Source of the DNA: a virus
Length of the DNA: 64,000 bases
IMG/VR virus record: IMGVR_UViG_3300045988_162375
Coordinates: 746-64,745 of that record
Reading direction: 5' to 3' (one strand)
Both the position numbers and the translations under genes were made by a program. The notes beneath the pieces were generated by a model. That model saw nothing but the letters and a program-made list of their open reading frames with translations, ran no database searches and was not told where the DNA came from. Position 1 is the first letter of the stretch; the number at the start of each line of letters is the position of its first letter. Shown in pieces: positions 8,215-44,936 of this stretch.

Positions 8215-8741
8215 CGGGAACTCGTCTAAGCGAGTCTAAACAGATCTTTAAGCTTAGAGCGTCTCTGGTCTTTATGACCAGAGGGTAGATAGAAGAAATT
8301 TAGATTTATAAAAATTTTAAATTTCTTATAAATTTATTATTATTGTGTTAATATTAACCCACCTAATTATAAATAATATGGAAGAATTTTGAATTCGGAA
8401 ATATAATACTTAAAGGTGGGGCGGAGGATATGGCCAGTTCCCTTGAGACAGTGCCATATTCAAGTATGTTATCTAGTCAATAATGTACTTCAGAGAAGGT
8501 TTTATACGCTCTGTTCCATTGTGCTATCAAGCCTTAACCCGACTTAAACTTAGTCTATGGGACTTTGATCGGTCCCATAGGCTCTTATGTGGTAGTGATT
8601 GCCGCGTTACTTCAATTTTGTTCATAGTGTTATTACTCTCTTCGAAATTGCCACATCTTGCAAGATCTGAGGGTTTGGTTGCAATCCAAGAAGCAGAAGA
8701 AAGAAAATGGTTATAAACTAAGTATTTCAAGCAACAACGTC

Positions 8742-27342: not shown

Positions 27343-27422
27343 GGCCCTGTAAGCAAATTGGTAAAGCTGCTTATATATTCTAGGTTCATAAGTGTGTGGA
27401 GGTTCGAATCCTTCCATGGCCA
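27343..27422 (+). tRNA. tRNA-like gene with a 13-nt anticodon loop (anticodon undetermined)
   Basis: Acceptor GGCCCTG/CATGGCC, U8, D arm AGC-AAATTGGTAA-GCT, stem CTTAT/ATAAG enclosing ATATTCTAGGTTC, T arm GGAGG-TTCGAAT-CCTTC. Confidence 0.3.
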
Positions 27423-31196: not shown

Positions 31197-32810
31197 ATGA
31201 CTCTATTTATCATTCTCGGTGCAGCACTACTGTTAGTGTTGCTCTCAGTAGTGGGAATTCTCTCACGGTACAGAAAATGTCCTTCTGACAAGATTCTTGT
31301 AATCTTTGGTAAGACAGGGGGCGAAAAATCTGCTAAGTGCATTCATGGAGGAGCAGCTTTCGTGGTACCTATCGTACAGGGTTACAGTTTCATGTCACTT
31401 AAACCTTTGCAGTTTGAGTGTAATCTTCAGAAAGCTCTGTCTTCACAGAATATCCGAGTAGATGTTCCAACTACTGTGACTGTAGGTATTTCTACAGAAC
31501 CTGAAGTAATGCAAATGGCTGCAGAGCGATTGCTTGGATTGACTACTGACCAGATTGAAGATCTCGTTAAGGATATTGTATATGGTCAGATGCGTCTAAT
31601 TGTGTCTAATATGACCATTGAAGAGCTGAACTCTGAACGAGACAAGTTCCTGGAAGAAGTGAAGAATGTTGTTGGTGGAGAGCTTCGTAAGATTGGCCTG
31701 CATCTTATCAACGTCAATATCACTGATATCAGGGATGAGGCAGGTTATATCATCGCATTAGGTCAGAAGGACAAAGCAATTGCTCTTAATAAGGCAAATG
31801 TTGAAATCGCTAAGGCTGAAAAGGACGGTGCAACTCAAACTGCAGAGCAGAACAAAATTAAGAACTCTGAAGTTGCTGTAACCCAACGTGAGGAAGCAGT
31901 TGCGGTCGCAGTGGCAAATGCCGAGCGAGATTCCAAGGTTGCAGAAACTCAGCGTACTCGTGATATCAATGTGGCAACTGCTAAAGCAGAAGGTGAGATT
32001 GGTAAAATCGAAGCTGAGAAGACTGTAACAAACAAGAATGCTGAGTTGGAAGTTGTGCGAGCAGATGCTGAAAAGGCTGCAAACACAGCTCGTGTAAAAG
32101 CAGAAGCTGAAGTCGCTAAGGAGAAAGAGCTTGCTCAAGTAGAAGTTGTTAAGGCTGAAGCAAAAGTGCTGCAAGAGCAAGAACTCGCTCAGAAGACTGC
32201 AGAAGAAGCTCGTGCTCAGCGTCAAGAAGCAGCCTTACATGCTGATAAGATTGTACCTGCAGAAATTTCTAAGAAAGAGAGTCTGCTGCGTGCTGAAGCT
32301 TATCAGCTGGAACAGGAGAAAATCGCAGAAACTAATGCTAATAAGACTAAAATCGAAGCTGATGGTAAAGCGCAAGCTGAAGCTCTCAAGGGTGAAGGTG
32401 AGGCTAAAGCCATTACTGCTAAAGGTCTTGCTGAAGCAGAGGTTGTTCGTCAGAAAGGTTTGGCTCAGGCAGAAGCAGAGAAAGCTTCTCTTAAGGCTCA
32501 GGCAGATGGTTTCCGTGAGATGATCGAAGCTGCCAAAACTGATCCTGCGATTGCAATTCAGTTCAAGATGGTTCAAGAAGGAACCTACGAAAACATTGCT
32601 AAGCAACAGGTTGAGGCTTACAAGCACATGAACTTCGGTAATGTGACCATCATGGACACTACGAAGGGTGGAGGCCTCACAAATGTGATGCAAAGCCTTC
32701 TGTCTCAAGTATCCCCCATGCTGAATGTTATGAAAGAAATGAAAATTCCTGGAGTATCAAAGGCATTGGAAGAGAAAACTGAGGATGCTAAATTTCCTGA
32801 AGTTAAGTAA
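31197..32810 (+). CDS. SPFH/band-7 (flotillin-like) protein with long Ala/Glu/Lys-rich coiled coil
   Basis: 537 aa; N-terminal TM, SPFH-like region, ~250-aa EA-repeat coiled coil (AEAEVAKEKELAQVEVVKAEAK...). Confidence 0.6.
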   Translation: MTLFIILGAALLLVLLSVVGILSRYRKCPSDKILVIFGKTGGEKSAKCIHGGAAFVVPIVQGYSFMSLKPLQFECNLQKALSSQNIRVDVPTTVTVGISTEPEVMQMAAERLLGLTTDQIEDLVKDIVYGQMRLIVSNMTIEELNSERDKFLEEVKNVVGGELRKIGLHLINVNITDIRDEAGYIIALGQKDKAIALNKANVEIAKAEKDGATQTAEQNKIKNSEVAVTQREEAVAVAVANAERDSKVAETQRTRDINVATAKAEGEIGKIEAEKTVTNKNAELEVVRADAEKAANTARVKAEAEVAKEKELAQVEVVKAEAKVLQEQELAQKTAEEARAQRQEAALHADKIVPAEISKKESLLRAEAYQLEQEKIAETNANKTKIEADGKAQAEALKGEGEAKAITAKGLAEAEVVRQKGLAQAEAEKASLKAQADGFREMIEAAKTDPAIAIQFKMVQEGTYENIAKQQVEAYKHMNFGNVTIMDTTKGGGLTNVMQSLLSQVSPMLNVMKEMKIPGVSKALEEKTEDAKFPEVK

Positions 32811-32854
32811 TTAACTTCTTTATGAGCTGTATAGTTAATATGCAGCTCTTTTAT

Positions 32855-32940
32855 CCCGACGCGGCTACGATGGTGGAGTGGCGCAGCACTGTAAATGCTG
32901 TACATCAGAAACTCATGAGGTTCGAATCCTCACGGCGGGA
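32855..32940 (+). tRNA. tRNA-Tyr(GTA), type II
   Basis: Anticodon arm CAGCA-CTGTAAA-TGCTG, 15-nt variable arm, T arm TGAGG-TTCGAAT-CCTCA, A73. Confidence 0.65.
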
Positions 32941-32956
32941 CTAATTTATATTGACA

Positions 32957-33426
32957 TGAAAATTGTAGATAATTTTATATTCTTCTGGGGAGGTTGGTTA
33001 AGTAACTTTCATCCTTGTAGAATAGTATTTGGCTCTAAAGTTTTTAAATCATCTGAACAGCTTTTTATGTATCTTAAAGCTTTGCATTTTGGTGATATAG
33101 AAACAGCAGAGAGGATTCTATTAGCAGAGACTCCAAAGGAAGCTAAAACCCTTGGTAGGGAGGTTAGAAACTTTGATGAAAAATCCTGGAATGAGGTTAA
33201 GATTCAGAAAATGTATCTTGCCTTGGAAGGTAAATTTAGCCAAAATAAAGATTTAATGGATAAACTTAAAGACCCAGCATTAAATGGGAAATTCTTTGTT
33301 GAAGCATCCCCCTTTGATAGAGTCTGGGGTATAGGCTATGATCAAGATCATGCACTTCAAAACCAATCAAATTGGGGAGAAAATCTACTTGGTAAGACTC
33401 TTACCTTTTACAGAGGATCTTTATAA
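32957..33426 (+). CDS. NADAR (YbiA-like) domain protein
   Basis: FFWGGWLSNFHPC...FKSSEQLFMYLKALHFGD...PKEAKTLGREV...ASPFDRVWGIGY match NADAR family conserved blocks; track start 32878 overlaps tRNA-Tyr, so start moved to ATG ~32957. Confidence 0.6.
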
Positions 33427-33433
33427 ACAATTT

Positions 33434-33470
33434 GCGGATATTGACATCGCTCAATATCCGCTTTATTTTT
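33434..33470 (+). terminator. Rho-independent terminator
   Basis: GCGGATATTGA-CATCGC-TCAATATCCGC followed by TTTATTTTT. Confidence 0.55.
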
Positions 33471-33483
33471 AAAACTTAATAAG

Positions 33484-35175
33484 ATGTTTGAAGCAAAAAA
33501 GAAAACATTATTTGCTGTTGATAGCAGTAAATCGGCATCTAAATCAGCCTTTATTCAGGCAGGATTAAAAACTGCAGCAGAAACCACTACAGGTAACGGT
33601 GGTAAAGCCTATTCCAGTACAGGGGATCCCTTCGTTGACCAGTTTGGTAGTACATCTAAGTACAGAGAGATTCGCCCATTTGCAGAAATTGCAAAAGATT
33701 GTGAAATTCTCTGGGCAGAAAATAAAGAAGATACTGTTAAATTTATCTTTTTCTTGCGAATGATTTGTCGTAAGATTAATGATAAAGAGTATGGTACCAA
33801 AGAAGCACAGAAGGGTTCTGAACTTCGTCATGAAGGTATTATGCGTCTCATCTGGCTGCATATCAAAGATAAAGAAGTGTTCTGGAAGAATGCTTGGTTG
33901 ATTCCCTTAGTGGGTTCTTGGAAAGATCTCTTCGTTATGCTTCGTTATGACTTAGTTTATAACGGCTGGGAACACCGAGTTCTGGATTGGCGCCGTTTTG
34001 CAGATCTGATTACTGCTGGCCTTAGTTCTGATTCCCAAACGAATCTTCTTCGTAAGTATCTTCCTCAGATCAAGGCACATTCCAAGTGTACTACAGTAGA
34101 GGCACAAGCAAATTGTATGATTGCAAAATGGCTGTGTTCAGAACTTTACGGTGCGTCAGGAGCAAAGACAGATGCTGAAAAGTATCAGGTATATCGTTCT
34201 TATGCAAAGATGAAAGCCGCAGGGACAGCACATAGCTGGCAACAGCTTATTTCAAAGCAACGATATACAGAGATTGACTTTGATAAGATTCATGGTCGTG
34301 CCTTAAACCTTCTTGTACACTCCAAGTTCTTAGAGAATCATAATCTCAAAGAGAAGTATCAGGAATGGATAGGAGCTCCAGAGACAAAGAAGGTGAAGTA
34401 CACAGGTTTTGTACATGAGCTCTTTAAACCTATTTGTAACACTGCTCCTTATAATATAGAGCAGCATATCAAAGATACTATTAATAAGCAGTTTATGACT
34501 CTTGTTAATAAGTGTAAGGAAGAGGGCAATACTACAGATCTAATTGTAGTACGTGATACTTCTGGTTCAATGGGTGCAGAAGCAACTGGAACTTCCATGT
34601 CTTGTTACAATGTAGGTAAGGCAATTGCTCTGTATTTCTCTTACTTCTTGAGAGGAAGGTTTCAAAATGCATGGATTGAGTTCAACTCGAAAGCTATGAT
34701 GCATGAGTGGAAAGGAGAAACTCCTCTGGAAAAATGGTTTAATGACCATTCAGGGTACTATGGAAGTACAAACTTTGAGGGTGTTATTAACCTCTTTACT
34801 CAGTTGAAACTTGAAGGTGTTCCAGAAGAGGAATTTCCTAAAGGAATTCTTTGTATCAGTGATTGTGAGTTTGATGCTTCAAGTCTGAATAAGACTTCAG
34901 TTGAAAGAGTTCATGATACATTGACAGCTGCAGGATTTTCTAAAGAGTATGTTGATAATTTTGTCATTTGCCTTTGGAATTTGAGAAATGATTACTACGG
35001 ACATAATGTACAAAATCGTGTTCCATTCCAAACTTATGGTGACGTCAAGAATGTCTACTATATGTCTGGATATTCAGCACAGATTGTATCTTTCTTAAAT
35101 GGGAAGGTGCAGACTACACGGGATCTGTTTGATGAGGCTATGAATCAAGAGATTCTGTCTCTCATTAAGATGTAA
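33484..35175 (+). CDS. vWA-domain protein with N-terminal helical domain (Ro60/TROVE-like or DUF2828-like architecture)
   Basis: 563 aa; C-terminal MIDAS-type motif LIVVRDTSGSMGAEATG; large N-terminal alpha-rich domain. Confidence 0.45.
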   Translation: MFEAKKKTLFAVDSSKSASKSAFIQAGLKTAAETTTGNGGKAYSSTGDPFVDQFGSTSKYREIRPFAEIAKDCEILWAENKEDTVKFIFFLRMICRKINDKEYGTKEAQKGSELRHEGIMRLIWLHIKDKEVFWKNAWLIPLVGSWKDLFVMLRYDLVYNGWEHRVLDWRRFADLITAGLSSDSQTNLLRKYLPQIKAHSKCTTVEAQANCMIAKWLCSELYGASGAKTDAEKYQVYRSYAKMKAAGTAHSWQQLISKQRYTEIDFDKIHGRALNLLVHSKFLENHNLKEKYQEWIGAPETKKVKYTGFVHELFKPICNTAPYNIEQHIKDTINKQFMTLVNKCKEEGNTTDLIVVRDTSGSMGAEATGTSMSCYNVGKAIALYFSYFLRGRFQNAWIEFNSKAMMHEWKGETPLEKWFNDHSGYYGSTNFEGVINLFTQLKLEGVPEEEFPKGILCISDCEFDASSLNKTSVERVHDTLTAAGFSKEYVDNFVICLWNLRNDYYGHNVQNRVPFQTYGDVKNVYYMSGYSAQIVSFLNGKVQTTRDLFDEAMNQEILSLIKM

Positions 35176-35183
35176 ACTTAATA

Positions 35184-35215
35184 GGCTCTAGTAGAAATAC
35201 TAGAGCCTTTTTATT
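35184..35215 (+). terminator. Rho-independent terminator
   Basis: GGCTCTAGTA-GAAA-TACTAGAGCC followed by TTTTTATT. Confidence 0.55.
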
Positions 35216-35645: not shown

Positions 35646-36227
35646 ATGCGATTACTTGTAGTAGTTGATATGCAAGAAGACTTCATCAGAGGTGCATTAA
35701 CGGTTCCTGGTGCTGAAGAAATAATTTCTCCTATAGAGAAATTAGTTAAAGAGTATATAACAGCAGATGATGCTGTCCTTTTTACTCGGGATACTCATTA
35801 TGAGCATAGTGATACTAGGGGATTCAGCTATGCTATGACTCGTGAAGGTAGAAATCTTCCAATTCTTCATTGCGTTTGTGGAACTGAAGGTCATAAGCTT
35901 ATTAAGGAATTTAAGCCTTATCTTCGTTCCTGCTATGTAATGGATAAACTAAATAGGTTTGGATTTATCCAGGATGAGTTTAATGATGCCAAGATAGATG
36001 ATGGAGAATATTTATTCGACATCGCTGATTGCATTACAGAAATTACTTTGGTTGGTGTAGTAACTAATCTTTGTGTTATTTCATGTGCTGTAAGTTTTCA
36101 GCAAATATTCCCTGATGCAGATATCATCATAGATGCTTCCTGCTGTCGTTCCAATAACAATGAACTTCATAACAAAGCTTTAGATGTTATGGAGGGTTTA
36201 CAAATGACTATAATTAATCGTTATTAA
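35646..36227 (+). CDS. pncA: nicotinamidase / isochorismatase-family cysteine hydrolase (PncA-like)
   Basis: N-terminal LLVVVDMQEDF (catalytic Asp), TNLCVISC (catalytic Cys), 193 aa. Confidence 0.55.
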   Translation: MRLLVVVDMQEDFIRGALTVPGAEEIISPIEKLVKEYITADDAVLFTRDTHYEHSDTRGFSYAMTREGRNLPILHCVCGTEGHKLIKEFKPYLRSCYVMDKLNRFGFIQDEFNDAKIDDGEYLFDIADCITEITLVGVVTNLCVISCAVSFQQIFPDADIIIDASCCRSNNNELHNKALDVMEGLQMTIINRY

Positions 36228-36228
36228 T

Positions 36229-37713
36229 ATGTTTAAACCTTGTGGAGCTCTACTGACTGATTTTTATAAGCAGGATCACCAGCGTCAATATGACCCTAGC
36301 ATCACTAAGGTAGTTTCTTACTATGTACCTCGTAAAACTAGGATTCCTGAATTTGATAAGGTAGTAGTTTTTGGTATTCAAGCATTTATTGAGGAGTATC
36401 TGATTGAGTACATGAATGAAACTTTCTTTAACCGTCCCTTAGAAGAAGTTATTGCAGAATATGAATTTGTGATTTCTTCTACTATGGGAGCAGACCGTGT
36501 TAACTCGGATAAAATTAAAAACCTTCATGAATTAGGATATCTTCCTATCGAAATTTGGGCACTTCCTGAGGGATATAAAGTAGGAATGAATATCCCCTGT
36601 ATCGAGATTTCTAATACTAATCCAGAATTTGCATGGTGTACTAATTTCATTGAAACCTTGATGCTCTCTGAGCTTTGGTATCCAATGTGTGTTGCAACTG
36701 CTGTAACTAAATATCGTAGTATCGTAAATGATTTTTATTCTAAAACTTCTGATATTTCTGGTCGTTCTGCTATTTCTGAGTTCGGATTTAGAAGTTTAGT
36801 TGGACTTCATGGTGCTATTAAAGCTTCGTGTGGATTTTTGCTCTCTTTTAATAAGACTGCGACTATTCCTGGCATTATGTATGCTTCAAAGTATTATCAT
36901 ACCCCAATGTCTGTAGTAGGTGGAGGTATGGCTTCTACTGAGCACTCCGTAATGTGTAGTTCTGCTGCCATTGATGGGGATGAAAAAGTTATGATTCGAC
37001 GCCTCCTTACTGAGGTCTATCCTAATGGATCATTCTCTATGGTAAGTGATTCCTATGATTACTGGAATGTTGTCGATGAGATTCTCCCATCTCTTAAGGA
37101 AGAAATTCTCAGTAGAAATGGTACTTTGTATGTTCGTGGTGACTCTGGAGATCCTGTAGAAATTGTAACTGAGACGGTTTTTTCTCTTTGGGAGACTTTT
37201 GGAGGCACTGTCAACTCTAAGGGATATAAAGTCTTAGACCCTCATGTTCGAGCTTTATATGGTGATGGCATCACTCAGTTACGTGCAAAACAGATTTATC
37301 AGATTTTGTATGATAAAGGATTCTCTGCAGAGAATGTTGCACTTGGTGCAGGAGGATTTTCCATGCTTTCTTACATGGATGAGTTTGGGAATGTAGATAT
37401 GTTCTCTCGCGATACATTTAATGTAGCAATTAAATGCAGCTATGTAGAACAAACCATTGATGGAAAAACTAAATCTATCATGGTCTACAAAGATCCTAAA
37501 ACGGATTCAGGAATGAAGAAATCCCACAAAGGATGTTGTGCTGTTTTCTACAACCATGTAACTGGTGAGTTTGATTGTGATGAAGGTATGACACTGAAAG
37601 AAGCTCATAATGAGCCTTTCAATTTACTTCGTCCTATCTTTTCAGATGGAAAAATGAGAGAGCAAACTACTCTCACAGAAATTCGTAGAACTCTTTGGAA
37701 CGGGAAATTCTAA
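36229..37713 (+). CDS. NAMPT/NAPRT-family phosphoribosyltransferase (NadV or PncB, or Namat-like)
   Basis: 494 aa; N-terminal LLTDFYKQDHQRQYDP characteristic of the nicotinamide/nicotinate PRTase family. Confidence 0.55.
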   Translation: MFKPCGALLTDFYKQDHQRQYDPSITKVVSYYVPRKTRIPEFDKVVVFGIQAFIEEYLIEYMNETFFNRPLEEVIAEYEFVISSTMGADRVNSDKIKNLHELGYLPIEIWALPEGYKVGMNIPCIEISNTNPEFAWCTNFIETLMLSELWYPMCVATAVTKYRSIVNDFYSKTSDISGRSAISEFGFRSLVGLHGAIKASCGFLLSFNKTATIPGIMYASKYYHTPMSVVGGGMASTEHSVMCSSAAIDGDEKVMIRRLLTEVYPNGSFSMVSDSYDYWNVVDEILPSLKEEILSRNGTLYVRGDSGDPVEIVTETVFSLWETFGGTVNSKGYKVLDPHVRALYGDGITQLRAKQIYQILYDKGFSAENVALGAGGFSMLSYMDEFGNVDMFSRDTFNVAIKCSYVEQTIDGKTKSIMVYKDPKTDSGMKKSHKGCCAVFYNHVTGEFDCDEGMTLKEAHNEPFNLLRPIFSDGKMREQTTLTEIRRTLWNGKF

Positions 37714-38483
37714 TGAAAGAAGTATATGAAGGAATAGTTTCCTTTCTTAAGAATTATCAAGAACGTACCCATGTGAAAGGGTATGTTCTTGGTATTTCTG
37801 GAGGAAAGGATTCTACTGTAGTGGCCAAATTATTGGTAGATTCTATAGGTAAGGAAAATGTATTAGGTGTGCTAATGCCTAATGGTAAGCAAGCTGATAT
37901 TGAGGATAGTTATACAGTATGTGACTTTCTTGATATTAACTATACTGTTGTTAATATAGAAAATGCGTTTGATGAACTTATTCATCAAATTGATGTTTCG
38001 AAAATAACTACAGTGGAAGGGAATGAAGAAAACATTCCAGTAACGGAAAAGGCTCTTACTAATGTTCCTCCTCGTATTCGTATGACTATTCTATATACTA
38101 TAGCTCAGTCTGTAGGATATCGAGTAGCGGGGACTAGTAATGCTTCAGAATTATTTATTGGTTGGGGAACTAAATGGGGAGATTTGGCATCTGATATTAA
38201 TCCTATTTCTCAATTAACATGTTCTGAAGTTATTTCTTTAGGAGACTATATGGGACTCCCATATGATCTTATACATAAGACTCCTGCAGATGGATTAACA
38301 GGAAAGTCTGATGAAGAAAATTTTGGTTTTACATATAAAGAACTTGACACTCTTATTGTAAAGCAGCGAAATCTTACTTGCACAGGTAGAATACAATGTG
38401 CTTTTACTGAACAAGAATTAAAAATCTTAAAATTACATGAAGCTGCGTATCACAAAGATCATGTAATTAAAATACATTATTAA
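37695..38483 (+). CDS. nadE: NH3-dependent NAD+ synthetase (NadE-like PP-loop ATP pyrophosphatase)
   Basis: PP-loop YVLGISGGKDSTVVAKLL; 262 aa. Confidence 0.6.
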   Translation: MEREILMKEVYEGIVSFLKNYQERTHVKGYVLGISGGKDSTVVAKLLVDSIGKENVLGVLMPNGKQADIEDSYTVCDFLDINYTVVNIENAFDELIHQIDVSKITTVEGNEENIPVTEKALTNVPPRIRMTILYTIAQSVGYRVAGTSNASELFIGWGTKWGDLASDINPISQLTCSEVISLGDYMGLPYDLIHKTPADGLTGKSDEENFGFTYKELDTLIVKQRNLTCTGRIQCAFTEQELKILKLHEAAYHKDHVIKIHY

Positions 38484-38484
38484 T

Positions 38485-39375
38485 ATGGGAAGCGGATCAT
38501 GGAGTTCTAACACATATAAAGCTTTTGCTGATAGCTATACTAAAAAATCCAGAGAAGAAATCTTTCATCAAAGATCTCTACACGAAGAAATGGATCTTAC
38601 AAAAAGTAAGACGCATATTCGAGAATCTAGAGATTCTGAGGAACACCCAGAATCTCTTCCAGTTTTCATTGCATTAGATGAAACTGGTTCAATGGGCTCA
38701 ATTCCTGATAAGATGATCAGGGATTATCTTCCGAAGTTAATGGATTCTATTATTGATTCTATTGGAGTTAAACACCCTCAAATTCTTTTTATGGGAGTAG
38801 GAGATCATGAATGTGATTACTGCCCGTGTCAGGTAGGTCAATTCGAATCTTCAACTGTTGCAATTAATCAATGTCTCTCTAAAATCTATTTGGAGGGTCG
38901 TGGTGGAGGTAATAGTGGAGAATCCTACTTACTTCCTTGGATTATTGCAGGAAATCACACGTCAATTGATAGCTGGGAAAAGCGAAAGCAAAAAGGATTC
39001 CTTTTTACAGTTGGTGATGAACCTACTTTGACAAGAATAAGTAGGGGAACTTTGGCATCCCTCACTGGAATGGAGTATGAGCGTGATTATACCTGGCAGG
39101 AGGCTTATGAACTTGCCTGTGAGAAATATCATGTGTTTCATATCCATGTTCGACATGGAAGTGAACATTATGATGAGGTAGTAGCTAAACAAATGAAAGA
39201 AATTCTTAGAGAAAACTTTATTGTGTGTAAACCTGATGAAGTTGTAGAAGCCATTTGTGAAGCTATGGGTAAAACTCTAAAAGGTAGCTCTTCAGTAATT
39301 GAAGAGGTTTCTGCAGAAAAAACTGTAGAAAATACAGAATCAAAACCTAATATATTTGACATACATCGACGATAA
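38485..39375 (+). CDS. hypothetical protein, possible vWA-like fold
   Basis: 296 aa; motif VFIALDETGSMGS resembles a MIDAS variant. Confidence 0.3.
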   Translation: MGSGSWSSNTYKAFADSYTKKSREEIFHQRSLHEEMDLTKSKTHIRESRDSEEHPESLPVFIALDETGSMGSIPDKMIRDYLPKLMDSIIDSIGVKHPQILFMGVGDHECDYCPCQVGQFESSTVAINQCLSKIYLEGRGGGNSGESYLLPWIIAGNHTSIDSWEKRKQKGFLFTVGDEPTLTRISRGTLASLTGMEYERDYTWQEAYELACEKYHVFHIHVRHGSEHYDEVVAKQMKEILRENFIVCKPDEVVEAICEAMGKTLKGSSSVIEEVSAEKTVENTESKPNIFDIHRR

Positions 39376-40469
39376 TGTATAATATTGTAGTGGGTTGTAC
39401 GTTTGGCGACGAGGGTAAGGGTCAAGTGACTCATGCCCTTTGTTGCGACGCTAAAAGAAAGCGTTTAAAACCTCTGGTTGTTAGATTTTCTGGAGGGCAT
39501 CAAGCAGGGCACACAGTAACTACTTCATCTGGAACAATGCATATATTTTCTTGCTTTGGATCTGGAACATTTGCTGAAGCACCTACCTATTGGATGAAGC
39601 AATGTGTTATGGATCCACTACAATGGATGCGGGAACGAGAGGAGTTGGATTTCTTAGGATGTAATATCCCTATCCAATATTTTGATCCATATGTACAAGT
39701 AACAACTCCTTTTGACGTAATGCTGAATTCTGAAAGGAGTAAAGGTTTTACAGTAGGAAAAGGGATATGGGAGACTGTTCAGAGACAAAGAGAAGGACTA
39801 GCTTTATATGTAAAAGATTTAGCTTTTCCTCAAGTTGTAAAAATGAAGCTCCGATTAATTAGAGAATGGGCGGAAGATAGACTCCAGTTTAAGGAAACTT
39901 ATTCAAGATTTGCTCATGTTTTCGATAACTTAGATTCTTTAGTACATACTTATTGTAAGATTTTTTATCCCAATATAGTATTGGAGGATACGTTATCTAA
40001 ATTAGCATGGAAAGAAAAGACTTCTGTGATATTTGAGGGTTCTCAAGGAGTACTTTTGGACCCTAATATTGGATTTTCACATGAATATACTACCCCACTT
40101 CCATGTTGTCCATCGTGGGACAATCTCCCATTCTTTTTAAGTGATGATCAACTAATATTTAATTTTGTATATAGATCTTATTTAACAAGACATGGTAAAG
40201 GGCCTGTTGGAGGTTCTATATTCAAGGAGATTAATAATCCTTATGAAACAAATTTAAATAATCCTTTTCAAGGGGAATTTCAAACTTATGAATTCAATAA
40301 GGAATTAGTCTTGTATGGAATTGATCATGTTAAATCACACTTTAATCCTGAATATAAGGTAAGGTTGATTGAAACATGTTGTGACATATGTGCAGGACAT
40401 GACTTAGGAATCCCTTATAATTACTCTATCAAAACCTGCAAAAAGAATTTTGACTCTGTATGCAAATAA
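39375..40469 (+). CDS. Adenylosuccinate synthetase homolog, short form (PurA-like, or possibly PurZ-like)
   Basis: N-terminal VGCTFGDEGKGQV and VVRFSGGHQAGHTV match the PurA P-loop/GDP-binding signatures; 364 aa, shorter than bacterial PurA (~430 aa). Confidence 0.55.
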   Translation: MYNIVVGCTFGDEGKGQVTHALCCDAKRKRLKPLVVRFSGGHQAGHTVTTSSGTMHIFSCFGSGTFAEAPTYWMKQCVMDPLQWMREREELDFLGCNIPIQYFDPYVQVTTPFDVMLNSERSKGFTVGKGIWETVQRQREGLALYVKDLAFPQVVKMKLRLIREWAEDRLQFKETYSRFAHVFDNLDSLVHTYCKIFYPNIVLEDTLSKLAWKEKTSVIFEGSQGVLLDPNIGFSHEYTTPLPCCPSWDNLPFFLSDDQLIFNFVYRSYLTRHGKGPVGGSIFKEINNPYETNLNNPFQGEFQTYEFNKELVLYGIDHVKSHFNPEYKVRLIETCCDICAGHDLGIPYNYSIKTCKKNFDSVCK

Positions 40470-41281
40470 TTAACTTTTTATACCCAGAAAAGTCAGAAAT
40501 AAAGTATCGAATTGATACTTATCCTGATTCTCAATCTCATCTTGTACTTGAGTCTGAAATGGATAGACGAAAGTCTTTGTCGATATATACTAGACTGTCC
40601 AATTTGAATGATATTTGGATCCTAATGCAATTAGCTGATATTTGTCATCGTCAAGGTATCCAGATTTCCTTTTTACGAATAGCTTATTTATTTGCAGCAC
40701 GAACTGATAGATTATTTTCTTTTAACGAAGCATTAGATTTGGAGCTTGTTAAAAAATGTCTTATCTTTGTACAAGCAGATCAAATTCTAATATTAGATCT
40801 TCATTCTAATCGTTTAATTGTAGAAGGAATAGGTGATAATGATTGGCCTACATTTTTTACCTTAAACCCAGGTTTTAATATTCCAGAGAGTATTTTATTC
40901 CCTGATGAAGGCGCTTATCATCGTTACAGTGAGCTTTTAGACTTTAATATAAAATATCGTACTACAACGTATGTTGCTACAAAGCATAGGATCTCAAGGG
41001 ATAAGTTAGAGGTAAAATTACCTTCTGAAATAAAGCCAAATACTTCTATTCTAGTTTTTGATGATTTATGTGATGGTGGGGGAACTTTCTTTGCAATTCA
41101 TAAAGCATTACAAGATATGGGAGTAACTGATGTGCATTTACGTGTTACGCATGCTATCCAAAAAGAACCTTTAGTAAAGTTATCAAAACTTTACAAAACA
41201 ATAACAATTACCAATTCTTATAAGGATTGGGATAAAGAAGAACTTCCAAACAATATAAAAGTAATAAGAGTTTATGAATAA
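40460..41281 (+). CDS. Ribose-phosphate pyrophosphokinase (Prs) family protein; possibly an ADPR-PP synthetase-like enzyme
   Basis: Prs motifs LRIAYLFAARTDR (cf. PYFGYARQDR), DLHS, LFPDEGA, ILVFDDLCDGGGT (PRPP-binding loop). Confidence 0.55.
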   Translation: MQIINFLYPEKSEIKYRIDTYPDSQSHLVLESEMDRRKSLSIYTRLSNLNDIWILMQLADICHRQGIQISFLRIAYLFAARTDRLFSFNEALDLELVKKCLIFVQADQILILDLHSNRLIVEGIGDNDWPTFFTLNPGFNIPESILFPDEGAYHRYSELLDFNIKYRTTTYVATKHRISRDKLEVKLPSEIKPNTSILVFDDLCDGGGTFFAIHKALQDMGVTDVHLRVTHAIQKEPLVKLSKLYKTITITNSYKDWDKEELPNNIKVIRVYE

Positions 41282-41924: not shown

Positions 41925-42986
41925 ATGATGTATAGTTTAGATGAAATAGGTATTTTACCTAGTTCAAAAGCCACGGATATTACAAGTCGTAGTGAGTGTA
42001 GTCCTTTAGGAGACTTAGGAACATATCCTATTTTTGTTTCTCCTATGACATCCGTTATTGATGAATCAAATTATCAACTTTTTACAAAGGCTGATGTGCT
42101 TCCAATTATTCCAAGACGTGTAGATAATTTACAGTTTAGACTTAATGCATGTAACCATGTTTGGTGTGCATTTAGTTTAAAGGAATTTGAAACATTCTTT
42201 TGTGAAGGAGAACCTTCTGATGAGTGTCCTCTGGTACTTATTGATATGGCTAATGGCCACATGAAGAAAATTTATGACCTGGTTAAGAAGGCTAAGGAAA
42301 AGTGGAGCACGATTATTATCATGGTAGGTAATATAGCTCATCCAGATCTTTATTGGGAATGCTATGATGCAGGGGTGGACTATGTTCGTGTAGGTATTGG
42401 AACTGGCAGTGTATGTACTACAGGAGTAAAAACTGGAGTACATGCTTCTATGGAATGGCTATTGCAACAATTAGTTAAGCGTCGATCCATGATTAAAGAG
42501 TCTCCTAAACCTAAAAAGGCTCCAAAGATTATCGCAGATGGAGGAATTTCTACAATAGATCGAGCTATAAAGTGTTTAGCTTTGGGCGCCGATTATGTAA
42601 TGATGGGTAAAATGTTTGCTCAATGTAACGAAGCTTGTGGGTATGTTAGAACAAAGTGGCCAGATGATAATGATACTATACTTAAATATTTTGCATCTTT
42701 AACTAAAGCAGAAAGTGATCGAATCATTGAAGTGTATCCTAAAGAGCGATTATACTACGGAATGGCAAGTGAACGTGGTCAAAAGGATATTTCAAACACT
42801 AAAAAGGCCGAAGAAGGAATTGAAATTTGGGTTCCTGTTGAATATACTCTTGAATCTTTACTTTCTCAATTTGATTCTGCATTAAGGTCTGCTATGTCTT
42901 ATACAGGATGTAGGACTCTTGAAGAATTCAAAAATGTAAAATGGGAGTATATGTCTCCCTCTGAAAGAAATGCTTATTACAAATAA
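41925..42986 (+). CDS. GMP reductase / IMP dehydrogenase-family enzyme (GuaC-like)
   Basis: 353 aa TIM-barrel; catalytic-Cys loop VGIGTGSVCTTGVKTG and C-terminal KIIADGGISTIDRAIKCLALGADYVMMGKMFA match the IMPDH/GMPR family. Confidence 0.55.
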   Translation: MMYSLDEIGILPSSKATDITSRSECSPLGDLGTYPIFVSPMTSVIDESNYQLFTKADVLPIIPRRVDNLQFRLNACNHVWCAFSLKEFETFFCEGEPSDECPLVLIDMANGHMKKIYDLVKKAKEKWSTIIIMVGNIAHPDLYWECYDAGVDYVRVGIGTGSVCTTGVKTGVHASMEWLLQQLVKRRSMIKESPKPKKAPKIIADGGISTIDRAIKCLALGADYVMMGKMFAQCNEACGYVRTKWPDDNDTILKYFASLTKAESDRIIEVYPKERLYYGMASERGQKDISNTKKAEEGIEIWVPVEYTLESLLSQFDSALRSAMSYTGCRTLEEFKNVKWEYMSPSERNAYYK

Positions 42987-44504: not shown

Positions 44505-44936
44505 ATGAAAACACTTCTTTGGGTAGATGATGCTCGTAATCCAATGGAAGATGATTGGATGAATTTTAGTCCAATTGGTAGAAATTGTAAAGTTGTATGG
44601 GCTCAATCTTACCAAGAAGCGATTGATTTTCTTGAGAAAGAATGGCCTGATGCAATTTGTCTAGATCATGATTTAGGGGAAGAGAAATCTGGATATGATA
44701 TAGCTAAGTATATTGTGGATCGGTGTATTGATGAGGATAAAAAACTTCCTGAGTTTGCTAGTCAGTCTGCTAATCCTGTTGGAAGGGAAAATATTATTAC
44801 ATTATTGAGCAATTATAAGAGACATGAACTTCTAGATCATATTCAAAAAGTTATTGATTATAAACATGATTGGCGGAAAGCAGTACAAGAAGGAAAAAGT
44901 TTGCCAAAATGGAATGGAAAAATTAAAGTCAATTAA
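44505..44936 (+). CDS. hypothetical protein with receiver (CheY-like)-type N-terminal pattern
   Basis: LLWVDDARNP ... ICLDHDLG pattern; 143 aa. Confidence 0.3.
   Translation: MKTLLWVDDARNPMEDDWMNFSPIGRNCKVVWAQSYQEAIDFLEKEWPDAICLDHDLGEEKSGYDIAKYIVDRCIDEDKKLPEFASQSANPVGRENIITLLSNYKRHELLDHIQKVIDYKHDWRKAVQEGKSLPKWNGKIKVN

Follow-up and report, generated by a model that had tools for sequence, protein, structure and literature searches.

The NADAR gene and the surrounding locus

The DNA analysed in this work, hereafter the window, is a stretch of 64 kb from a phage genome of roughly 170 kb. The 30-40 kb part gave no match by megablast against 50,697 phage records; relatives were found in metagenomes only, and the phage is uncultured. 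The GC content of 35% and the absence of Shine-Dalgarno motifs suggest a Bacteroidota-like host. The features around the gene of interest, which encodes a NADAR-domain protein, are presented in Table 1.

Table 1. Features of the NADAR locus and of the region downstream of it (positions in the window)
Feature	Position	Strand	Remarks
Terminator-like hairpin and T-run	32824-32848	+	10 pairs, then TTTTAT; separates the SPFH/Band-7 gene from the tRNA-Tyr/NADAR unit
tRNA-Tyr(GTA)-like element	32855-32941	+	ARAGORN; ends 14 nt 5' of the NADAR start codon
NADAR-domain protein gene	32956-33426	+	156 aa, ATG start, TAA stop; predicted catalytic residues E34, K41, E116
Terminator-like hairpin	33434-33461	+	11-bp stem, then TTTATTTTT; 8 nt 3' of the NADAR stop
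Ro60/TROVE-like RNA-binding protein gene	33484-35175	+	563 aa; DUF2828 and DUF7788/vWA; phrog_850 'RNA-binding protein'
Terminator-like hairpin	35183-35208	+	3' of the TROVE gene, 5' of the NAD gene block
Variable NAD/nucleotide cassette	35646-41281	+	context only
Isochorismatase/nicotinamidase-like gene	35646-36227	+	first NAD-related gene, 2.2 kb downstream of NADAR
NAMPT/Namat-like gene	36229-37713	+	438 bits to NF006629
NadE gene	37695-38483	+	
MIDAS-motif protein gene	38485-39375	+	296 aa
Short PurA-like gene	39375-40469	+	
Short Prs/Adps-like gene	40460-41281	+	273 aa

The preliminary description had given the gene as 32957-33426; its end is right, and its start is one base off the frame, the ATG lying at 32956. 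A longer ORF with a GTG start at 32878 runs into the upstream tRNA call and finds no support among the homologues, which are mostly 156 aa long. The pairwise dN/dS values of the gene in the lineage range from 0.06 to 0.23, showing that it evolves under purifying selection. We concluded that this is a genuine and intact NADAR gene of the phage.

The tRNA-Tyr(GTA)-like element was not matched by the Rfam tRNA model even at E<=1, and ARAGORN made no tRNA-Tyr call in the sister loci L011, L014 and L001. Its 3' half, comprising the T-arm and the acceptor, is kept before the NADAR gene in all members of the lineage. The hairpin that stands between the NADAR and TROVE genes has a dG of -16.4 kcal/mol (z=-5.8; 0 of 200 shuffles equally good) and is kept, with changes in the stem, throughout the lineage including a 62%-identical branch. 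The NADAR gene is thus a separate unit bracketed by terminator-like hairpins. The TROVE gene is the sole protein-coding neighbour kept beside it in every lineage member; we regard it as context, and a joint action of the two proteins is putative. A search of Rfam around the two genes for Y RNA or other structured RNA returned nothing at E<=1.

Family, fold and ADP-ribose pocket of the protein

The protein matched Pfam NADAR (PF08719) at E=1.1e-40, scoring 140 bits where the cut-off is 35.1, over model positions 11-160 of 163, and PHROG phrog_1017 at 9.4e-45. Its AlphaFold2 model has a mean pLDDT of 97.0 and a pTM of 0.91. When this model was searched with Foldseek, the ADP-ribose-bound NADAR of Phytophthora (8BAU) was retrieved with a TM of 0.85 and E. 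coli YbiA (2B3W) with a TM of 0.75, and no fold other than NADAR was found at E<1. The evidence for family and fold is far beyond chance. The isoelectric points compared among NADARs, from 5.0 to 9.5, were uninformative.

The ADP-ribose pocket was mapped by aligning the protein with HMMER to 8BAU and using the contact list in Schuller 2023. The contacts of 8BAU (E43/K50/K75/G78/R79/V81/Y84/D86/W89/R93/E125/D130/W133) map, in the same order, onto E34/K41/K64/G67/R68/V70/F73/E75/W78/K82/E116/D121/W124 of the phage protein, so that all 13 contacts are kept, 10 of them identical and 3 conservative. Across 26 homologues with identities down to 39%, E34, K41, G67, R68, W78, E116, D121 and W124 are invariant and K64 and F73 nearly so. 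The Glu/Lys/Glu catalytic triad (E34, K41, E116) is present, with the seven-residue Glu-Lys spacing of NADARs: E34/K41 here, E43/K50 in the Phytophthora protein (Pn), E88/K95 in C7 and E36/K43 in T4. E116, within the motif VEASP, corresponds to E125 of 8BAU (SEQRES 127) and does not vary across the family alignment. By this residue the protein is assigned to the YbiA-type (Glu) subfamily, as against the Asp (BC4488/DarT1-linked) and His (T4-phage) types. K64 is the equivalent of the lysine C7 K115 / Pn K75; the lysine of the C7 K115 type is required for rescue from DarT1 but not for catalysis. The conserved NADAR/YbiA blocks recognised in the preliminary description were therefore borne out by the Pfam match, the fold, the triad and the pocket.

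One alternative is that the protein is an N-glycosidase of the YbiA/COG3236 kind that destroys reactive intermediates of the riboflavin pathway as metabolic housekeeping or damage control. It does pass the cut-off of NCBIfam TIGR02464, 'riboflavin biosynthesis intermediates N-glycosidase' (133.1 bits versus 73.7), although this is a generic domain model that does not separate substrates, and homologues are labelled 'ribA/ribD-fused' or 'GTP cyclohydrolase II' in several databases. However, the window and the immediate surroundings of NADAR at the loci examined (38 lineages) yielded no riboflavin genes, the residues binding adenine and pyrophosphate are kept although a ribosylaminopyrimidine phosphate substrate would not need them, and YbiA itself also hydrolyses guanine-ADPr (PMC11125620). 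We consider a riboflavin-related function most improbable.

Relation to the NAD genes

The NADAR gene had also been described as lying next to an island of NAD+ genes, and from this proximity an anti-defence island had been proposed. NAD genes do occur downstream in the region, at the distance given in Table 1, but the TROVE gene and two terminator-like hairpins stand between. In the sister phages L013, L014, L002 and L003 the NAD cassette is partly or wholly deleted, and NADAR and TROVE are retained in the sister phages with the NAD genes deleted. An operon of NADAR and the NAD genes was rejected because the two hairpins and the TROVE gene intervene and these natural deletion variants exist. 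Pfam analysis of 150 immediate neighbours of NADAR (two genes per side in 38 other, dereplicated lineages) revealed no dominant partner, and neither NAD genes nor ADP-ribosyltransferases (ARTs) were among them. The link between NADAR and the NAD genes is loose and the "NAD island" argument weak. The occurrence of phage NADARs beside NAD-salvage genes has, moreover, already been published (2022-2024).

Within the cassette, identification of the PurA-like gene as PurZ of Z-genomes was rejected, the score being 26.9 bits against a cut-off of 300. The criteria for NARP1 are a Prs-like Adps within 10 genes of a NAMPT-like Namat, an Adps without the C-terminal PRPS module and a Namat with an aromatic selectivity clamp. 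The NAMPT-like and Prs-like genes are four genes apart and the Prs-like protein is short like Adps; the "-like" labels are sequence matches, in which Namat and Nampt, or Adps and Prs, are not told apart.

The NAD genes are of interest for another explanation, according to which the substrate of NADAR would be soluble ADP-ribose derivatives, such as N-glycosidic ADPr conjugates, immune signals of the cyclic ADPr type or by-products of RNA repair, and the freed ADP-ribose could be rebuilt to NAD+ by the Prs/Adps-like and NAMPT/Namat-like enzymes. It is in line with this explanation that the Prs-like protein has the shortness of Adps proteins, that its gene and the NAMPT-like gene are within the ten-gene spacing set for NARP1, and that a cREC-domain protein is also encoded in the region. 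The presence of NAD genes no more than 10 kb from NADAR in the lineage of the phage and at least three others agrees with it as well: in L077/L086 NADAR is flanked at 3 kb on either side, by a Prs-like gene upstream and a NAMPT-like gene downstream, while NadE is present in L019 and, alongside a nicotinamidase-like gene, in L037/L044. In a further locus, L108, there is a weak CTP_transf_like match 0.7 kb upstream. The cassette is, however, dispensable where NADAR is kept (L013, L014), an operon link is lacking, and the 38 lineages have no NAD genes as immediate neighbours. In addition, action on a soluble ADPr signal is not known for any NADAR, a literature search combining NADAR with Thoeris yielded no report of it, and the conservation of K64, the equivalent of the DarT1-rescue lysine, hints at a macromolecular substrate. 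Action on soluble derivatives thus appears quite unlikely.

Neighbours of NADAR genes elsewhere

A profile search of the genome contigs with a 9-sequence NADAR alignment gave 9 loci, and 753 INPHARED records are of phages that carry NADAR. The genes seen repeatedly around NADAR elsewhere are those for RNA repair, for PARG glycohydrolases and, in some cases, for NAD salvage. RtcB, HAD_SAK_2, PolyA_pol and Metallophos are among the immediate neighbours in the 38 lineages, and several other lineages carry RtcB or a CCA-adding enzyme no more than 10 kb away from NADAR. Close relatives (44-50% identity) adjoin PARG-type ADP-ribose glycohydrolases in Bacteroidales-type contigs and in jumbo phages, which fits a role in clearing macromolecular ADP-ribose. 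TROVE is rare, being present in 228 of the 50,697 phage records, and is found within 6.5 kb of NADAR in another three, unrelated groups of phages: Listeria Pecentumvirus, where RtcB and a ligase accompany the two genes, Yersinia Eneladusvirus, where an RNA ligase does so, and the jumbo-phage locus L060.

These neighbours bear on the possibility that the chemistry is the same but the substrate is RNA, namely guanosine- or cytidine-ADPr made in tRNA, rRNA or mRNA by ART toxins of the host, and that the locus belongs to a region of RNA repair and protection with TROVE and the phage tRNAs. The order tRNA-like element-NADAR-TROVE is found in every lineage member, even with the NAD cassette deleted. 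Among hydrolases, reversal of guanosine ADP-ribosylation in RNA has been found for NADARs alone (PMC11833690), and cytidine-ADPr is reversed by some of them (PMC12945103); together with the associations described above, these data speak for RNA. On the other hand, the strong hairpin described above parts NADAR from TROVE, the TROVE of Enterococcus Schiekvirus has no NADAR within 20 kb, and no Y RNA or other Rfam family was detected around the two genes. As both genes are typical of the accessory/tRNA region in large myoviruses, their co-location may be non-functional, and the in vivo role demonstrated so far for phage NADARs concerns DNA only. On balance we regard RNA as an unlikely physiological substrate, yet a better candidate than the soluble derivatives.

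A broader version takes the tRNA-like element, NADAR and Ro60/TROVE, not NADAR and the NAD island, as the conserved unit, one that would turn up again close to RNA ligase/RtcB and PARG genes in large phages of unrelated groups. NADAR might then repair ADP-ribosylated bases of RNA (e.g. tRNA guanosine or cytidine) in the course of infection, as one of several enzymes that together shield against ADP-ribosylating toxins, and the ADP-ribose might be recycled to NAD+ by the Adps/Namat-like genes. This version seems to us improbable, to about the same degree as the action on soluble derivatives.

A retron cassette of Rikenellaceae genomes has a NADAR of 46% identity as its third gene, after those for the retron RT and for a 307-aa protein with an RNDYSH motif. 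The 307-aa protein had no match in Pfam or PADLOC, and its motif makes it a candidate HEPN protein. Given this cassette, the phage copy could be an orphan antidote to an undescribed retron-type system.

Predicted function

NADARs were stated in the preliminary description to hydrolyse guanine-linked ADP-ribose, and this is true of every NADAR assayed so far (PMC11543638, PMC11125620, PMC11833690); all subtypes tested hydrolyse guanine-ADPr and none hydrolyses thymine-ADPr (PMC11125620). From this published biochemistry of relatives, we strongly infer that the phage protein would de-ADP-ribosylate guanine and possibly cytosine. The explanation that we prefer, and hold with moderate confidence, is that this stand-alone Glu-type NADAR removes ADP-ribose from a nucleobase and is predicted to be used as an orphan counter-defence against a host toxin. 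The protein would bind the ADP-ribose moiety of the modified nucleobase and would hydrolyse the N-glycosidic linkage that joins the distal ribose to the base (guanine N2, possibly cytosine), and the products would be free ADP-ribose and unmodified nucleic acid. Marks set on phage DNA by a toxin of the host, of the DarT1 type or another guanine-specific ART, would in this way be erased and replication would continue. The physiological target may be phage DNA that carries the marks of a DarT1-like toxin of the host.

No ART, macrodomain or sirtuin was found by Pfam, which can miss divergent ARTs, among the approximately 110 ORFs of the window, and neither Pfam nor PADLOC revealed DarT or another ART there. 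As no partner ART adjoins NADAR in this large phage, an orphan, antitoxin-like counter-defence is its most likely use. The same searches bear on a different idea, that NADAR balances an ART encoded by the phage itself, providing self-immunity or a timer as suggested for T4-like phages with Alt/Mod. NADAR genes are expressed with ARTs in T4-like phages (Iyer et al. 2022), and toxin-antitoxin pairs of ART and NADAR do exist, as in DarT1-NADAR and YarT-YbiA (PMC11125620). Nevertheless, with no ART, macrodomain or sirtuin found by Pfam in the part of the genome covered, such a balance is very unlikely.

As for the preferred counter-defence role, the proposal made earlier that the protein is an antidote to DarT is plausible and stands in part. 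The 34%-identical NADAR of phage Bas60 counters DarTG1/DarT1 (PMC11257639), but no DarT or other ART lies in the window, and guanosine and cytidine of RNA are NADAR substrates as well. Activity in vitro on guanine-ADPr is no guarantee of protection in vivo: YbiA and T4 gp30.3 are active in vitro, yet do not rescue E. coli from DarT1 (PMC11125620). It should be mentioned that the protein is of the Glu type, not the DarT1-linked type, and has no similarity to T4 AdfN, both of which count against the preferred explanation. It should also be mentioned that its conserved neighbours, the tRNA-like element and Ro60/TROVE, are RNA-related and indicate RNA as much as DNA.

The idea of an anti-DarT role for phage NADARs is not new (Johannesman 2024, Schuller 2023, Cihlova 2024), and phage NADARs as anti-DarT1 factors, exemplified by AdfN, were published in 2022-2024. 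If the preferred explanation is true, the reversal of nucleic-acid ADP-ribosylation by NADAR extends from coliphages to uncultured gut/rumen phages of about 170 kb that probably infect Bacteroidota, and guanine-targeting ADP-ribosyltransferase defences are active in the hosts of these phages. The gain would be incremental, since phage orphan NADARs are already established as anti-DarT1 factors. The repeated occurrence of this NADAR clade by Ro60/TROVE, RNA-ligase and PARG genes, and the retron-NADAR cassette of Rikenellaceae, bear on whether the protection given by phage NADARs covers RNA in addition to DNA.

Comparison with known NADARs

AdfN (T4 gp30.3) belongs to the same superfamily and has the same proposed job, that of an orphan phage NADAR clearing guanine-ADPr from phage DNA; it functions only where the DNA carries the T-even modification. 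BLASTP gave no similarity between the two proteins (E=2.9), the T4-type clade has His where the phage protein has Glu (E116), and gp30.3 does not match the PADLOC model PDC-M42C, which the phage protein matches. Membership in the AdfN type was rejected on these three grounds. The DarG1 / DarT1-associated NADAR antitoxins of E. coli C7 and Geobacter lovleyi share the fold, the predicted reaction and the K64-equivalent lysine, but have Asp (C7 D171) instead of Glu at the third catalytic position. A PDB search with the NADAR family profile at E<=10 retrieved 8BAU and 2B3W only, and did not reach the DarT1-linked NADAR structure that is described in papers as solved. With Glu in place of Asp, no adjoining DarT1 and the DarT1-linked structure missed by the profile, the DarG1 type was likewise rejected.

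Among solved structures, 8BAU, the NADAR of Phytophthora nicotianae (Schuller et al. 2023), is the best match in both sequence and structure, with E=1e-17 (4.6e-35 with the family profile) and 33% identity. It also has Glu at the E125 position, as in YbiA, but is a eukaryotic protein of 189 aa with extra loops. E. coli YbiA (2B3W) shares the Glu-type NADAR core (E=9.5e-6, or 1.8e-19 with the profile); it differs in having only about 29% identity and in belonging to a LexA-controlled operon, and there is no riboflavin context around the phage gene.

A close known counterpart is found in a non-T4 phage, Escherichia phage Bas60 / PaulScherrer, whose NADAR (bas60_0111, 'putative YbiA-like N-glycosidase') rescues DarTG1-sensitive phages and neutralises DarT1 in experiment (PMC11257639; Johannesman et al. 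2024). The 34% identity of the two phage proteins extends over 169 columns (E=1e-22), and both match PDC-M42C. Both are stand-alone proteins with the Glu/Lys/Glu catalytic residues and no adjoining ART, whereas the Bas60 protein is longer (183 aa, with two insertions) and comes from a Justusliebigvirus of E. coli in which the gene has another neighbourhood.

Identity, fold and selection of the NADAR gene

The ORF starts at an ATG at position 32956 and ends with a TAA at 33426 on the plus strand, encoding a protein of 156 aa. A longer version with a GTG start at 32878 overlaps the tRNA called upstream, and 156 aa is the length of most homologues; therefore, 32956 was taken as the start. The preliminary description had located the gene correctly but began it at 32957 (32957-33426), one base off, in a frame with stop codons. 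Its assignment of the product to the NADAR domain was confirmed. Pfam NADAR (PF08719) matched over nearly the entire model with 140 bits (cut-off 35.1, E=1.1e-40), NCBIfam TIGR02464 scored over its model cut-off, and phrog_1017 (function unknown) matched at 9.4e-45. The AlphaFold2 model, with 26 homologues as input, had a mean pLDDT of 97.0, and a PDB structure search with it gave only two significant matches, both NADAR structures: 8BAU, the Phytophthora nicotianae NADAR with ADP-ribose bound (TM 0.85), and 2B3W, E. coli YbiA (TM 0.75). Within the lineage comprising the window phage and its sisters, pairwise dN/dS was 0.06-0.23 (dS up to 2.4), and the gene is under purifying selection.

Active site and subfamily

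Residues were mapped by comparing a HMMER alignment to 8BAU with the contacts that Schuller et al. 2023 (PMC11543638) list; the SEQRES numbering of 8BAU equals the paper's number plus 2. The 13 ADP-ribose contacts of the P. nicotianae protein (PnNADAR) and their counterparts in the window protein are E43/E34, K50/K41, K75/K64, G78/G67, R79/R68, V81/V70, Y84/F73, D86/E75, W89/W78, R93/K82, E125/E116, D130/D121 and W133/W124; ten are identical and three conservatively replaced. Among the 26 homologues, down to 39% identity, E34, K41, G67, R68, W78, E116, D121 and W124 do not vary, and K64 and F73 hardly vary. Since a Glu occupies the E125 position, the window protein belongs to the YbiA/Pn-type subfamily, which rules out the Asp type of DarT1-linked antitoxins and the His type of T4-like phage NADARs. 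Strong homology predicts that it binds ADP-ribose and hydrolyses a ribosyl-base N-glycosidic bond. That this bond would be in a riboflavin intermediate is hardly probable at all, as there is no riboflavin context and the ADP-ribose pocket is conserved.

Organization of the locus

The features are listed in the table below. Beyond the hairpin that follows the Ro60/TROVE-like gene, the order is a small ORF, an isochorismatase/nicotinamidase-like gene, the NAMPT-like gene, NadE, a 296-aa MIDAS-motif protein, the short PurA-like and Prs-like genes, a 116-aa ORF, tRNA-Arg and the GMP-reductase/IMPDH-like gene.

Features of the window in order of position
Feature	Position	Strand	Remark
ABC importer region	~1-18.8 kb		Pfam matches
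Pistol self-cleaving ribozyme	8220-8290	+	Rfam RF02679
tRNA	27343-27422	+	Rfam, 44 bits
SPFH/Band-7 gene	31197-32810	+
Hairpin	32824-32848		between SPFH/Band-7 gene and tRNA-Tyr-like element
tRNA-Tyr-like element	32855-32941	+	ARAGORN
NADAR	32956-33426	+	156 aa
Hairpin	33434-33461		directly after NADAR
Ro60/TROVE-like gene	33484-35175
Hairpin	35183-35208		after TROVE-like gene
NAD cassette	35646-41281		nicotinamidase-like to Prs-like
NAMPT-family protein	36229-37713	+	438 bits to NF006629
MIDAS-motif protein	38485-39375	+	296 aa
PurA-like protein	39375-40469	+	364 aa
Prs-like protein	40460-41281	+	273 aa
GMP-reductase/IMPDH-like protein	41925-42986	+
cREC_REC protein	44505-44936	+	143 aa, E=2e-21

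In the hairpin directly after NADAR, TTTATTTTT comes after a stem of 11 bp (dG -16.4 kcal/mol, z=-5.8). This hairpin is kept, with an altered stem, in a branch whose NADAR is only 62% identical. This conserved hairpin indicates that NADAR forms a small unit apart from the NAD genes, and we rejected an operon shared with them. NADAR and the tRNA-like element are probably co-transcribed.

The tRNA-Tyr-like element was called by ARAGORN only; the Rfam tRNA model gave no match to it even at E<=1. In three sister phages (L011, L014 and L001 among the loci fetched for comparison) its 5' part is replaced by other sequence and ARAGORN calls no tRNA, and the T-arm and 3' acceptor stay conserved, at 14-15 nt from the start codon of NADAR. 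The element may work as a tRNA or as a signal for processing, or may be a relic. Like the window, an unrelated 248-kb contig (L097/L098, 3020-4270) has a Band-7 gene upstream of its NADAR, which is 49% identical; the distance there is 1.7 kb, and the gene that follows NADAR is sigma-70-like.

Link to the NAD cassette

The order tRNA-like element, NADAR, TROVE is constant within the lineage, but the NAD genes are not. L013, whose NADAR is 96% identical, lacks the genes from nicotinamidase-like through PurA-like, and L014, L002 and L003 lack NadE through PurA-like. The cassette is thus a natural presence/absence polymorphism, with a 3' Prs-like remnant left in all four.

Outside the lineage, 80 IMG/VR loci were fetched; with the other fetched loci and the window, the NADARs formed 40 clusters at 60% identity. 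Among the 150 immediate neighbours (two genes on each side) in 38 other lineages, Pfam revealed no dominant partner, NAD gene or ADP-ribosyltransferase (ART); the counts were three Metallophos, two thymidylate synthase and one each of RtcB, HAD_SAK_2 and PolyA_pol. NAD-related genes lie within 10 kb of NADAR in a minority of lineages: in L077/L086 it is flanked at a distance of 3 kb by a Prs-like gene (upstream) and a NAMPT-like gene (downstream), L019 has NadE, L037/L044 have a nicotinamidase-like gene with NadE, and L108 has a weak nucleotidyltransferase match. The association is real yet loose and lineage-specific, and was already described by Iyer et al. 2022 (PMC9503650). The preliminary description had argued for anti-defence from the adjacent NAD island; this argument is weak, because NADAR is a separate hairpin-bounded unit, sisters lack all or part of the cassette and 38 lineages have no adjoining NAD genes. 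That NADAR is the antidote to a phage-encoded ART is very unlikely, Pfam having found none within the 64-kb window, which is part of a larger genome.

The NAMPT-like protein and the short Prs-like protein, encoded four genes away, appear to fit the published criterion for Namat/Adps of NARP1; with the nicotinamidase-like protein and NadE, a Preiss-Handler-type route could operate instead or as well. NADAR might process soluble ADP-ribose derivatives, the ADP-ribose possibly being fed to Adps/Namat-like enzymes, a role that we consider quite improbable.

The 296-aa protein, between NadE and PurA-like, had no Pfam, NCBIfam or PADLOC match; its homologues number 4,670 (about 45-50% identity for distant ones among the matches listed), and an invariant motif, D-V-T-G-S-M-G, of the MIDAS-like kind suggests that its fold is of vWA type. 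The PurA-like protein is a short, divergent adenylosuccinate-synthetase-like protein and was rejected as PurZ (26.9 bits, cut-off 300). Together with the GMP-reductase/IMPDH-like protein it could shift guanine to adenine nucleotides in this phage of 35% GC. The cREC_REC (cyclic-phosphate-processing receiver) domain belongs to the predicted ADP-ribose/RNA-repair processing set of Iyer et al. 2022 (PMC9503650).

Recurrent neighbours

Only 228 of 50,697 phage records contain TROVE. NADAR has a TROVE gene no more than 6.5 kb away in Listeria Pecentumvirus (with RtcB, ligase and phosphoesterase), Yersinia Eneladusvirus (with RNA ligase) and the jumbo-phage locus L060, and RtcB or a CCA-adding enzyme lies within 10 kb in several further lineages. 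In Enterococcus Schiekvirus, TROVE is present and no NADAR was found within 20 kb. The locus of Enterococcus phage EfV12-phi1 (L094) parallels the window in having, in this order, a long tRNA array, TROVE and nucleotide-metabolism genes, with the published NARP3 pair PnuC and NadR 5-9 kb downstream and no NADAR within 20 kb.

On rumen/Bacteroidales-type contigs (L110, 3977-7128; L111; L100; L102), NADARs with 44-50% identity to the window protein have one or two genes for microbial PARG (PF10021) at their flanks, and the jumbo-phage loci L024 and L042 have PARG 1-2 kb from NADAR and also carry RtcB. Bacterial PARGs reverse 2'-OH ADP-ribosylation of RNA (PMC11833690). These clusters look like multi-enzyme toolkits stripping ADP-ribose from macromolecules.

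In Rikenellaceae MAGs (L095, 852-3760; L103), a tight cassette of three genes stands beside a tyrosine integrase. The first gene is for a retron-type reverse transcriptase (PADLOC retron RT models, E about 1e-100), the second for a 307-aa protein and the third for a NADAR that shares 46% identity with that of the window. The cassette may represent a kind of retron that includes NADAR. The 307-aa protein matched no family; it contains RNDYSH, which we ourselves read as an Rx4H, HEPN-like motif. An RNA-directed or retron-directed role for the window NADAR is rather doubtful.

Taken together, the recurrent neighbours seem to favour macromolecular de-ADP-ribosylation, with RNA a serious alternative to DNA. 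That the window NADAR performs the same chemistry on RNA, in a region of RNA protection, we regard as unlikely.

The phage and its host

The window belongs to a large phage that is uncultured; near-identical IMG/VR contigs reach about 179 kb, and the largest of them span 170-179 kb. ARAGORN found 24 tRNAs, megablast of 30-40 kb against cultured phages gave no match, GC is 35%, Shine-Dalgarno-like motifs are depleted ahead of genes (6 of 72 genes against a 14% background), and the best phage matches of the Prs-like gene are a crAss-like phage and Prevotella Lak phages. These features suggest a Bacteroidota host.

The Pistol ribozyme match is full-length (73 bits, gathering score 34.5, E=2e-11). 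The tRNA at 27343-27422, missed by ARAGORN, has CTA in a plausible anticodon position; in the sister L011 (5397-5477) the tRNA that ARAGORN places just 5' of tRNA-Lys, as in the window, has the anticodon CTA. It is possibly an amber-suppressor tRNA and hence a possible sign of TAG recoding. Pfam matches in about the first 18.8 kb point to a full ABC importer set (a substrate-binding protein like NMT1/THI5, a BPD_transp_1 permease and an ABC_tran ATPase) and, in addition, to an Ion_trans channel and a protein of the OmpA family, which is unusual phage cargo.

Proposed role and comparison with characterised NADARs

A DarT1-like host toxin would place ADP-ribose on guanine, perhaps cytosine, of phage DNA, and an orphan antitoxin-like NADAR would remove it. 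The physiological target is one that we infer, and we see about an even chance that the window NADAR acts in this way. The de-ADP-ribosylation/anti-DarT mechanism put forward in the preliminary description is plausible, but already in print. DarT1 attaches ADP-ribose to guanine in DNA, a modification that NADAR reverses (PMC11543638). In vitro, guanine-ADPr is hydrolysed by all four E. coli/T4 NADAR subtypes and thymine-ADPr by none of them; in vivo, the subtypes differ in rescue from DarT1 (PMC11125620). On RNA, too, NADARs remove ADP-ribose from guanosine (PMC11833690), and some also act on cytidine-ADPr (PMC12945103). DarTG1 is countered by T4 AdfN and, among unrelated phage NADARs, by those of Bas32 and Bas60; the Bas60 protein neutralises DarT1 also without infection (PMC11257639).

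A profile of the window-NADAR family reached only 8BAU (4.6e-35) and YbiA (1.8e-19) in the PDB up to E<=10, so the family is far from the DarT1-linked NADAR described in papers as structurally solved. By BLASTP, T4 gp30.3/AdfN had no similarity to the window protein (E=2.9), while the Bas60 NADAR (bas60_0111) was 34% identical (E=1e-22). The Bas60 NADAR also matched the same PADLOC model, PDC-M42C, as the window protein, whereas AdfN had no PADLOC match. The concept is known, and the window protein, a phage NADAR of the Glu type that stands alone, is a relative of the Bas60 enzyme, which has been validated.
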